Source: Escherichia coli
Lineage (GTDB): Bacteria > Pseudomonadota > Gammaproteobacteria > Enterobacterales > Enterobacteriaceae
DNA: 64,000 nucleotides
Direction: 5' to 3' (one strand)
Assembly (NCBI RefSeq): GCF_030013595.1
Contig: NZ_CP122769.1
Position numbers: made by a program. Positions 6,001 to 9,000 of the stretch are shown in pieces; the stretch's first letter is position 1; each line of letters starts with the position of its first letter.

Positions 6001-9000
6001 CTCAAAGGCGACCTGATGATACTGAACAGGGCCCGTCATCTGTCAGAAATCACCATGAAAAATATCCGACAGAATCTGTTTTTTGCATTTATCTACAACG
6101 CACTTGGCGTGCCTGTGGCTGCAGGCCTGCTTTATCCTGTGTATGGAATACTGCTGTCGCCAGTTATTGCGGCGGCGGCCATGGCTCTTTCCTCCGTCAG
6201 CGTCATTGTGAATGCGTTGCGTCTGAAAAGTGTCAGGCTCGGGAAATAACACTGAGTGAAGGGGCTGTTACGAACAGAAGGAGTCCAGTATGAAAAGTAC
6301 CACCTATGCGCTTATTGCTGTCGCCGCGATCGCGGCATTTGCCCTCCTGCGCGAACACTGGTCACATGTGGCAGGTTACTGGCCATATCTGTTATTGCTG
6401 GTCTGCCCGCTCATGCATCTTTTCCACGGCCACGGAGGGCATGGAGATCATCAACATCAAGGAAGTGAAAACGATAAAAAAAATTAATCCGGCAGACGGG
6501 GCCGCGTCGCGGCCCCGTTATCAGTCCAGGTATCGTTCGTAGTCTCTGGCATGCGCAAAGGCATGCTGTTCAAGTTTGTTATCAGCGGGTGCCGCTGCCC
6601 GGAACGCCAGTGAGTTAACAGGATTGTTATTGATGACCAGCTCGTAATGCAGATGAGGACCGGATGAACGTCCGCTGTTACCGGATAACGCAATAGCGCC
6701 TCCCCGGGTAACCCTGGCCCCTTTAGTAACGAGTATTTTATTGAGGTGGAGATAGCGAGTTTTAACACCGGCTTTTCCTGTTACTTCAACAAAATATCCC
6801 ATGGTGCTGTTGTATTCGGCCCGGGTGATTTTTCCGTCGATGACGCTGACTATTTTCGTGTTCATGGGCATGGAATAATCAATGCCATTATGGGGACTCA
6901 CTTTTCCCGATACCGGGTTAAGTCTTGCAGGATTGAAAGGCGAACTGAGTCTTGCTGTGGCCGGTAACGGATAATCGAGACTGCCTTTCCCGGAAGTATC
7001 GGAAAGGTTATAGAACTTTTTATCTGATATACGATACGCCGTGTAATTAAATGAACCGGACGTAAATTTATAGGCCACGACACGTGATTTTCCCGCTTTC
7101 TTTTGCAGTACGAGTTTTAATGATTCATTTTTTTTCAAATGCCGCAGATTAAAGCGGGAAGGCAAGGAGCGCTGAAGAGTAGCGATCTCGTTCGATTCCA
7201 GCCCCGAGCGGGTGGCTGAAAGGTAGGCATTTTCTTTTACGACATCGGTAGAATACATTTACTGGAATTCGCCGTTAGCATGAACACTGCGGCGTATGCT
7301 AGGGGTTTTCAGGAGGCGTGTCATCTGTCAGTTAATCGGGAGCACCGTTGATGGTCGTCATTTTTGTAACATATCTTGTTTCCCGTTTGCTCCTGAAGCT
7401 CTGGGAACTGTATGACCAGCCCGACGGTGATGATTAACGGGACTGAAACAGGTTACGGCAGAGCAATATGGGGCTCATGTCCTGCTACGTAACCCGTCAG
7501 TAAAGCCCTGCTGCGCACCTGACGCTAAGCACTAACCCGCCTGCAGTTACCTGGTCGAATACAGCCCGCGAAGCTTTCTTGCCTGCGTCTGATGTGCTTC
7601 CGCACCGGCATTATTGACCTGCTCATGCACGAGAGCGGCTTTTTCTCCGGCATTCAGTTCGTTAAAAGAAGAAGACGAGGTCTTTGAATTTGCGTCACTG
7701 CCGGACAGCATTTTTTTATGTTCCTCAATCATTTTCTGATGCGCATAGGACGCGCTGTTGTTCATAAATGAATGAGCAACAATGGCCCTTTCATGTTCAT
7801 TCATTTCAGAGAATGAGGGCGTGTTGTTTTTATTAACCCTGTCCGGTAAGTTTTCATGCGTCGAGGAATTCACATGACTGACGGCTGAGGCATTATTAAC
7901 AAATCGATGTGCTTCATGGGCAATATCACTGGACTGAGCAAAAGCTGCCCCACAAAATAAAGCTGTAAACGCAGTGGTCGTGATTAATATATTCATGTGT
8001 AATTACCTTCTGAGGTACATAAAAGATGTCCTTATGATCATATATAAAAATAATCAACCTGTGGGGAAGATGACGTAAATGTAATACAGCTATGTACATT
8101 ACACGATTGTAATGAATTTGTTTCTTAAGGTGTGCTAGATTCATTTTATTGTAAGTGGATGAACCAGTAATTTAATTTAAATCGGTTCTCGAATTCTGTC
8201 AGTAACCATACTTTAAATAAGGGAATACGCATGCTGTTGAAAACGTCTCGACGAACTTTCCTGAAGGGGTTAACCCTCTCTGGCGTAGCCGGAAGTCTTG
8301 GCGTATGGAGTTTCAATGCGCGTTCCAGTCTGAGCCTGCCAGTTGCCGCATCCCTGCAGGGTACTCAGTTTGACCTGACCATTGGTGAAACGGCCGTCAA
8401 TATCACGGGCAGTGAGCGTCAGGCCAAAACAATCAATGGAGGCCTGCCGGGGCCCGTTCTTCGCTGGAAAGAAGGTGACACCATTACCCTGAAGGTCAAA
8501 AACCGTCTTAATGAACAGACGTCCATTCACTGGCACGGCATTATTCTTCCGGCCAATATGGATGGTGTTCCGGGGCTGAGTTTTATGGGCATAGAGCCTG
8601 ATGATACCTACGTTTACACCTTTAAGGTTAAGCAGAACGGGACTTACTGGTACCACAGCCATTCCGGTCTGCAGGAACAGGAGGGGGTATACGGTGCCAT
8701 TATCATCGATGCCAGGGAGCCAGAACCGTTTGCTTACGATCGTGAGCATGTGGTCATGTTGTCTGACTGGACCGATGAAAATCCTCACAGCCTGCTGAAA
8801 AAATTAAAAAAACAGTCGGATTACTACAATTTCAATAAACCAACCGTTGGCTCTTTTTTCCGCGACGTGAATACCAGGGGGCTGTCAGCCACCATTGCCG
8901 ATCGGAAAATGTGGGCTGAAATGAAAATGAATCCGACTGACCTCGCGGATGTCAGTGGCTACACCTACACCTATCTCATGAACGGGCAGGCCCCGCTGAA

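Follow-up and report, generated by a model that had tools for sequence, protein, structure and literature searches.

The window, the whole 64-kb stretch of Escherichia coli DNA analysed here, carries the plasmid sil/pco copper-silver resistance island. Its genes lie in the order silA, a DUF411 gene, silP, two minus-strand genes encoding an M23 peptidase and a SilE/PcoE-family protein, then pcoA, pcoB, pcoC, pcoD, pcoR, pcoS and pcoE. This order is common to the window and the annotated intact reference pSTM6-275, which reads silESRCFBA-silP, an opposite-strand M23 peptidase gene and "copper resistance protein" gene, and pcoABCDRSE; protein family matches concur. The two minus-strand genes were named pcoF and pcoG by Staehlin et al. 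2016 (PMC4824010), who reported them to be co-transcribed from PpcoF, a copper-inducible promoter regulated by PcoRS. An earlier sequence-only reading of this DNA had the gene context right: the gene that it called pcoE-like is pcoF, which belongs to the SilE/PcoE family and diverges from pcoA, and pcoE follows pcoRS. The locus encodes a cognate OmpR/PhoB-family regulator and sensor kinase, PcoR and PcoS, one of the features by which we recognise copper boxes, and the closest solved chain to PcoR is 2jzy, the PcoR effector domain. The sil/pco island is among the most widespread metal-resistance modules of enterobacterial plasmids and is co-selected with antibiotic resistance where copper goes into animal feed. 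For the region 7400–8400 alone, matches were found in 2,553 plasmid records, mostly from Klebsiella, Escherichia, Enterobacter and Salmonella, and 2,101 have at least 99% identity.

Table 1. Genes, copper boxes and candidate promoter elements of the pco locus (positions in the 64-kb window)
Feature	Position	Strand	Description and basis
pcoG	6521..7258	-	M23 metallopeptidase gene downstream of pcoF; NCBIfam matches to MepM- and ShyA-type peptidoglycan endopeptidases; name from PMC4824010
pcoF	7547..7996	-	SilE/PcoE family model NF047789, E=1.5e-22, below curated cut-off
Candidate -10 of PpcoF	8037..8042	-	TATGAT, within conserved block 8036-8053
Box F	8070..8085	-	Second copper box, ATGACGTAAATGTAAT; top PWM match of the window; invariant in pUMH16
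Box A	8097..8114	+	PpcoA copper box, CATTACA-cgat-TGTAATG (core ATTACAcgatTGTAAT, 8098-8113); perfect 7-bp inverted repeat
Candidate extended -10 of PpcoA	8133..8141	+	TGcTAGATT (hexamer 8136-8141); hexamer begins 22 bp past box A
pcoA	8231..10047	+	Multicopper oxidase, two ORFs via frameshift; TIGR01480 matches 8231-9322 and 9319-10047
pcoR	13684..14370	+	TIGR01387, E=1.7e-118
pcoS	14367..15767	+	TIGR01386, E=8.1e-185
Box E	15795..15810	+	PpcoE copper box of CusR/SilR type, gTGACAAAATTGTCAT; direct reading and repeat finder; equals the published pcoE palindrome
Third half-site of PpcoE	15816..15821	+	AGTCAC, 11 bp past the right arm of box E
Candidate -10 of PpcoE	15844..15849	+	TATAAT; begins 33 bp past box E, spacing as in PsilE
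pcoE	15985..16419	+	Periplasmic copper- and silver-binding protein; NF047789, E=1.3e-39

Box A is the inverted repeat that the sequence-only reading had located between pcoF and pcoA, and direct reading and a repeat finder both recover it there, with CATTACA (8097–8103) and TGTAATG (8108–8114) 100% complementary and 4 nt apart. We aligned the pcoF–pcoA intergenic region of the window with three other island variants, one of which is the 77%-identical copy on C. freundii pUMH16. The half-sites of box A are invariant across all four, within a conserved block that runs CATTACA..ATTGTAATGAA, and the central CG becomes GC in pUMH16. In its placement, 22 bp from the -10, the box agrees with the CopR box of Pseudomonas copA promoters; in the window this -10 would be the hexamer of the candidate extended element TGcTAGATT. 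Relatives in the island alignment read TAGCTT or TAACGT at this hexamer and so retain the pattern TAnnnT. Among 60 unique copA-proximal promoters, TG stands at offsets 20–21 in 50/60, as do A at 24 and T at 28 (50/60 each), the proximal box lying 22 bp from TGnTAGNTT or, in the Pseudomonas version, TGgCAATTT. An alternative hexamer at 33-bp spacing, TATTGT (8147–8152), was ruled out as the -10 of PpcoA, as it reads CATTGT in most island copies.

Box F, on the pcoF side of box A, is probably the operator of the divergent pcoF–pcoG promoter. Its left half, ATGACG, stands at the canonical 4-bp spacing from its right half, the TGTAAT at 8080–8085 that the sequence-only reading had taken for one arm of a longer repeat, TGTAAT...ATTACA, overlapping the repeat at box A. 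That longer repeat is present, its arms (8080–8085 and 8098–8103) being 100% complementary and 12 nt apart, but it is not one unit: the arms are the adjoining halves of boxes F and A. We assign the left TGTAAT to box F because the block of each box is invariant in the island alignment while the bases between them drift; for box F the invariant block is AAGATGACGTAAATGTAATACA (8067–8088), and 8089–8096 are not conserved. Both boxes are 16 bp long and their centres are 28 bp apart.

The -10 of PpcoF is a candidate that we propose from the sequence by comparison. A TAYGAT hexamer lies 26–27 bp from the distal box in 9/9 enterobacterial loci compared, and the sequence in between differs. The assignment is nonetheless uncertain, since compared with the spacings of pcoA and pcoE (22 and 33 bp) this distance differs in phase by half a turn of the helix. 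Two further candidates for this promoter were rejected, namely a degenerate overlapping box, AATACAGCTATGTAC (8083–8097), in which TGTA becomes CTTT in pUMH16, and CATAAG as a -10 at 33-bp spacing, which is not conserved in the island alignment.

Upstream of pcoE, the sequence TGACAAAATTGTCAT (equivalently TGACAAaaTTGTCAT) at 15796–15810 places the 6-bp arms TGACAA and TTGTCA around AA. The site is where the sequence-only reading had put a perfect palindrome, although it is not strictly perfect, the AA centre being non-symmetric. Letter for letter it is identical to TGACAAnnTTGTCAT, the pcoE-promoter palindrome quoted as a CusR target in PMC11195947, which also gives AAAATGACAAnnTTGTCATTTT, between cusRS and cusCFBA, as the sequence bound by E. 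coli CusR. The identification of this site as a copper box is thus borne out by a verbatim published target. In pUMH16 the half-sites of box E are retained and read GTGACAgAAaTGTCAT.

From box to -10, PpcoE can be aligned position by position with PsilE, PsilC and E. coli PcusC, and all four have in common TGACA-N4-TGTCAT, GTCA 11 bp further on, AAAYCAGAG, and a -10 at 33 bp; the GTCA (15817–15820) is invariant in the pcoE, silE, silC and cusC promoters and suggests that the third half-site is functional. The proposed -10 of PpcoE keeps TATAA in pUMH16, with the sixth base changed to C, and the rest of the layout is conserved. Because PpcoE has this layout in common with PsilE, PsilC and PcusC, we regard pcoE as having a cus/sil-type promoter, which would fit its being a paralogue of silE. 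Box E is the only one of the three that belongs to the CusR/SilR-type promoter class of cusC, silC and silE (TGACA/TGTCA, a third GTCA and 33 bp); boxes A and F fall outside it, with GTAAT and a different spacing. A structured pcoE leader was not supported (fold z-score -1.35), and across 7000–16600 the only Rfam family matched was RNA-OUT of IS10.

All three boxes have the copper-box dyad T(G/T)ACA and TGT(A/C)A 4 bp apart, boxes A and E as exact matches to TKACANNNNTGTMA and box F with one mismatch. Each lies upstream of a copper-resistance gene, in a setting without a consensus -35 and at a conserved distance from its putative -10 (22 bp for pcoA, 26–27 bp for pcoF and 33 bp for pcoE), and in comparison with pUMH16 half-sites are kept while spacer and flanks diverge. 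A simple sigma-70 scan of the pcoF–pcoA and pcoE regions detected no correctly oriented canonical promoter, as expected because these promoters would be activator-dependent. Exact matches to TKACANNNNTGTMA number 3 in the 64 kb against 0.33 expected, a count reached in 0/100 shuffles; they are the pcoA site, the pcoE site and a third at 60048–60061, which lies within IS66-like ORFs and is put down to chance. Window-wide enrichment is gone once 1–2 mismatches are allowed, so that position and conservation bear most weight. A PWM trained on 41 boxes, all from outside the island, gives its highest score anywhere in the window to box F (19.9 bits), where random windows reach maxima averaging 13.5 +/- 2.2. 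Box A, at 14.5 bits, and box E, at 13.1 bits, score no better than the best match of a random 64-kb window, and support for these two therefore comes from position and conservation. Searching the literature for the raw motif strings returned only unrelated primer matches.

Among 79 loci of other species that encode PcoA relatives (70–99% identity), 74 carry a box with at most 2 mismatches and at most 350 bp upstream of the copA/pcoA gene; the consensus in Pseudomonas is CTGACAGAAATGTAAT. Every box recognised ahead of copA/pcoA has GTAAT as its right half-site, whereas the pcoE, silE, silC and cusC promoters have GTCAT, an A/C difference that is absolute in the sets compared. Seven chromosomal loci (in four Pantoea, E. 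ludwigii and Chimaeribacter) have two boxes, 36–37 bp apart as against 28 bp in the island. All two-box loci have a divergent small PcoE-like gene resembling pcoF, and where Pseudomonas loci lack a gene of this kind, copA has one box only. The distance between boxes therefore varies while each distance from box to -10 is fixed, which argues that each promoter has its own box, pcoA being served by box A and pcoF–pcoG by box F.

The boxes can be set beside several characterised systems. With the copper boxes of pRJ1004, as secondary sources describe them, they share the operon, the promoters and the hyphenated dyad type, as well as the pcoE palindrome, and differ in nothing substantive. Relative to the E. 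coli CusR box at cusC–cusR and its sil equivalents, box E agrees in half-sites, spacing and downstream layout, but lacks the flanking A/T runs and has G rather than A before TGACAA, whereas boxes A and F have GTAAT and not GTCAT in the right half. In P. paraeruginosa, the pcoA2–cusR intergenic palindrome was validated by DAP-seq, EMSA and mutagenesis (PMC11195947); it is printed as ATTCATnnATGTAAT, which we read here as ATTACATnnATGTAAT on the strength of the mutant version ATTACATnnATAGCCT. On that reading its half-sites, ATTACA and TGTAAT, and its 4-bp spacing are those of box A, and it too lies between divergent copper operons, so that both sites of the sequence-only reading find a counterpart among published boxes. 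The arrangement differs in that one palindrome there serves both directions and three regulators, whereas in the window there are two boxes, and the distance of each to its own proposed -10 is fixed.

Pseudomonas CopR boxes (PRODORIC CTGACAn5GTAAT; the cop box of P. syringae copA) offer a further comparison, in which box F matches the TGAC and GTAAT halves with A instead of C as the first base, and box A is placed with respect to the extended -10 just as the copA box of Pseudomonas is, although box A is fully symmetric (ATTACA) and the Pseudomonas box is asymmetric. TGACA-type half-sites have also been confirmed in P. putida by 5'-RACE and footprinting (PMC12428095), but the transcription starts reported there do not fit sigma-70 promoters and were set aside as a guide to this locus. 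The cop box of Firmicutes CopY (TACAnnTGTA, with a 2-bp spacer; PMC10141476) is a different element, the TACA and TGTA of box A being separated by 4 bp, and the island ORFs that were scanned include nothing resembling a CopY gene.

Taken together, we consider it very likely that the repeats are operators ("copper boxes") of copper-responsive OmpR/PhoB-family regulators, with box A acting on pcoABCD(RS), box F on pcoF–pcoG and the CusR/SilR-type box on pcoE. The term "copper boxes" has been used for pco (PMC8689200), and both binding by the phosphorylated regulator and a need for the box in copper-inducible transcription are reported for pco in secondary sources (PMC8689200, PMC11195947, PMC4824010, PMC7558416, PMC10525130). 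A rise in periplasmic copper would lead a sensor kinase to phosphorylate its regulator, a dimer of which would bind the box and recruit RNA polymerase to a promoter without a usable -35. Box A, 22 bp upstream of its extended -10, would in this way activate pcoABCD(RS); box F, read as ATGACGtaaaTGTAAT and 27 bp from the TATGAT on the opposite strand, would activate pcoF–pcoG; and box E, 33 bp upstream of TATAAT, would activate pcoE. If transcription starts about 7 nt past each proposed -10, the box centres would fall near -42.5 (pcoA), -47 (pcoF) and -53.5 (pcoE). The corresponding predicted starts lie near 8148 (+) for pcoA, 8030 (-) for pcoF and 15856 (+) for pcoE.

Which regulator acts at which box is a separate question. 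The sequence-only reading had suggested that the difference between the two sites might reflect PcoR at one and a chromosomal CusR-type regulator at the other. This agrees with reviews in which PcoRS drives pcoABCD and chromosomal CusRS drives pcoE (PMC7558416, PMC10525130, PMC10141476), and the difference between GTAAT and GTCAT is indeed systematic, although the split may not be strict. The alternative is that regulators are not partitioned at all, PcoR, SilR and CusR binding all three boxes and the GTAAT/GTCAT difference reflecting ancestry, the pcoE promoter having been copied from a silE/cus type. PcoR and SilR are 57% identical overall with almost identical recognition helices (DSDTNAIDVAVKRLRAKID in SilR), and in P. 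paraeruginosa CusR, CopR and CzcR use one palindrome with the half-sites of box A (PMC11195947), so that cross-binding is plausible. The homology of PpcoE to PsilE over the entire promoter would also be explained, and in Pseudomonas the 22- and 33-bp layouts both use GTAAT boxes. The two systems are, however, said to act independently in E. coli (PMC11195947), in line with the division of pcoE and pcoABCD between CusRS and PcoRS in the reviews, and the A/C difference has no exception in the sets compared. We hold the absence of any partition to be a real but lesser possibility, and it is doubtful that each box strictly answers to a single regulator. On the chromosome, ChIP-chip found a single CusR site, at cusC/cusR.

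Read toward pcoF, box F has the distal half ATTACA and the proximal half CGTCAT, the latter being TGTCAT in Pantoea, Enterobacter and Chimaeribacter; its distance to the proposed -10, 26–27 bp, is unusual as well. More speculatively, and with little expectation that it will hold, box F could be a hybrid operator, cop-type in its distal and cus-type in its proximal half, that takes input from PcoR and from SilR or CusR, and the spacing classes of 22, 26–27 and 33 bp could set the order or threshold of induction for pcoA, pcoF–pcoG and pcoE. To our knowledge, the idea of such a hybrid operator or built-in induction order has been touched on in the literature only by an unpublished thesis.

The P. 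paraeruginosa precedent, in which one palindrome controls both divergent operons (PMC11195947), also raises the question of whether box A alone drives both pcoA and pcoF, with box F auxiliary or non-functional. We consider this quite improbable. No other sequence in the window matches the PWM as well as box F, which stays invariant at 77% overall identity, and the distance of box F to TAYGAT is conserved, whereas that of box A to the same hexamer is not (55 bp against 63 bp); moreover, two boxes occur together with a divergent pcoF-like gene and single boxes at Pseudomonas loci without one. Very improbable is a composite operator, in which the three TGTAAT/ATTACA half-sites would form one unit bound by a higher-order regulator complex or extruded as a cruciform: the outer repeat TGTAAT-N12-ATTACA is perfect, but its 12-bp interior is not conserved, the change in box spacing from 28 to 36–37 bp in other genera shifts the helical phase, and the left TGTAAT has its own partner, ATGACG, at the canonical spacing. 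A chance origin of the palindromes in AT-rich intergenic DNA has next to no probability, since, despite the missing window-wide enrichment with 1–2 mismatches, exact matches are enriched, the sites are conserved across genera and published sites are matched (PMC11195947).

One operator per promoter, read by copper-responsive regulators, is accordingly the interpretation that we retain, and the pco copper boxes are real, correctly interpreted and already known. The pcoA box of the window is presumably the published pcoA box, to judge from secondary sources. Boxes and regulators were reportedly described between 1997 and 2000, and the copper boxes of PpcoA and PpcoE on the E. coli plasmid pRJ1004 are said to go back to Rouch & Brown 1997 (Microbiology 143:1191) and Munson et al. 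2000 (J Bacteriol 182:5864). A reference plasmid whose pcoF–pcoA intergenic region is identical to that of the window encodes a PcoA 99.67% identical to the AMRFinder reference protein. Our addition is a modest one and consists of comparative evidence for a separate pcoF box and of three conserved box-to-(-10) spacings. Assigning boxes to genes helps to predict whether a given copy of the island can be induced and which sensor, of the host or of the plasmid, would do so.

The circuit may not work normally in the present copy, given a frameshift in pcoA and an IS10 insertion in pcoD, which lies upstream of pcoRS. The frameshift comes from a C6 run at 9296–9301, which is C7 in the reference plasmid. 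IS10 (11675–13003) splits pcoD and is accompanied by a 9-bp duplication, its RNA-OUT being detected on the minus strand; the IS10–pcoD junction is absent from every PLSDB plasmid. If both lesions are real, expression of pcoRS could fall, in which case the pcoA and pcoF boxes would depend on cross-activation.

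The promoters of pcoE, silE, silC and cusC share a third half-site, (A/T)GTCA(C/T), lying exactly 11 bp past the right arm of the 16-bp copper box, and all four conserve AAAYCAGAG in what is presumed to be the -35/-10 spacer. The third half-site looks like a direct repeat of the pho-box style. Pseudomonas promoters with 33 bp between box and -10 element carry CTCAG and TGACAG at offsets matching these elements. Upstream of the copA box, at a distance of ~340-370 bp, many Pseudomonas loci (among L015-L086) also possess a second box of CopR type, with a TAAGGT -10 element and a 33-bp, cus-like arrangement.

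On the pcoF side, 26-27 bp separate the box from a TAYGAT hexamer in the window and in comparison loci L009-L014 and L020, a spacing half a helical turn off phase relative to the 22-bp (pcoA) and 33-bp (pcoE) classes.

Coordinates of promoter, reading-frame and insertion features
Feature	Location	Remarks
Third half-site and AAAYCAGAG stretch	window 15816-15835; L001 ~9316-9340, ~7020-7045 (minus strand); L003 ~182-206	
Second CopR-type box	L034 2460-2475	upstream of 68-aa secreted protein (2597-2803)
pcoF-side box to TAYGAT	window 8037-8085, minus strand; L009-L014, L020 near 2790-2830	
AATGAAT/ATTCATT	window 8111-8117 / 8139-8145	
pcoE leader	window 15856-15984	~130 nt
Exact box-consensus match	window 60048-60061	at IS66-like tnpB ORF end
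15.9-bit matrix match	window 56843-56858	within ORF 55835-57016
pcoA ORFs	window 8231-9322, 9319-10047	
pcoA C run	window 9296-9301	
Complete IS10	window 11675-13003	1,329 bp; lies within pcoD, upstream of pcoRS
RNA-OUT (Rfam)	window 11720-11789, minus strand	within IS10

A perfect 7-bp inverted repeat, AATGAAT/ATTCATT, flanks the presumed -35 to -10 region of PpcoA; pUMH16, the 77%-identical C. freundii homologue, conserves only 5 bp of the repeat, and Pantoea lacks it. The pcoE leader contains blocks conserved in pUMH16, and AACACCGG, close to its ribosome-binding site, is also present in silE. The predicted structure of the leader is not unusual (z = -1.35) and it has no match in Rfam. Elsewhere in the window, TGACAATGTTGTAA, which fits the box consensus exactly, and CTTTCAAAAATGTACT, a match to the box matrix, were taken as chance.

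pcoA comprises two ORFs because a C run has lost 1 bp (C6, versus C7 in the intact reference plasmid pSTM6-275); either the gene is a genuine pseudogene or the deletion is a sequencing error in the homopolymer. pcoD is interrupted by an IS10 encoding a 402-aa IS4-family transposase and bordered by a 9-bp target duplication, GGCTCTGTG; the pcoD::IS10 junction did not occur among PLSDB plasmids. This insertion could be polar on pcoRS.
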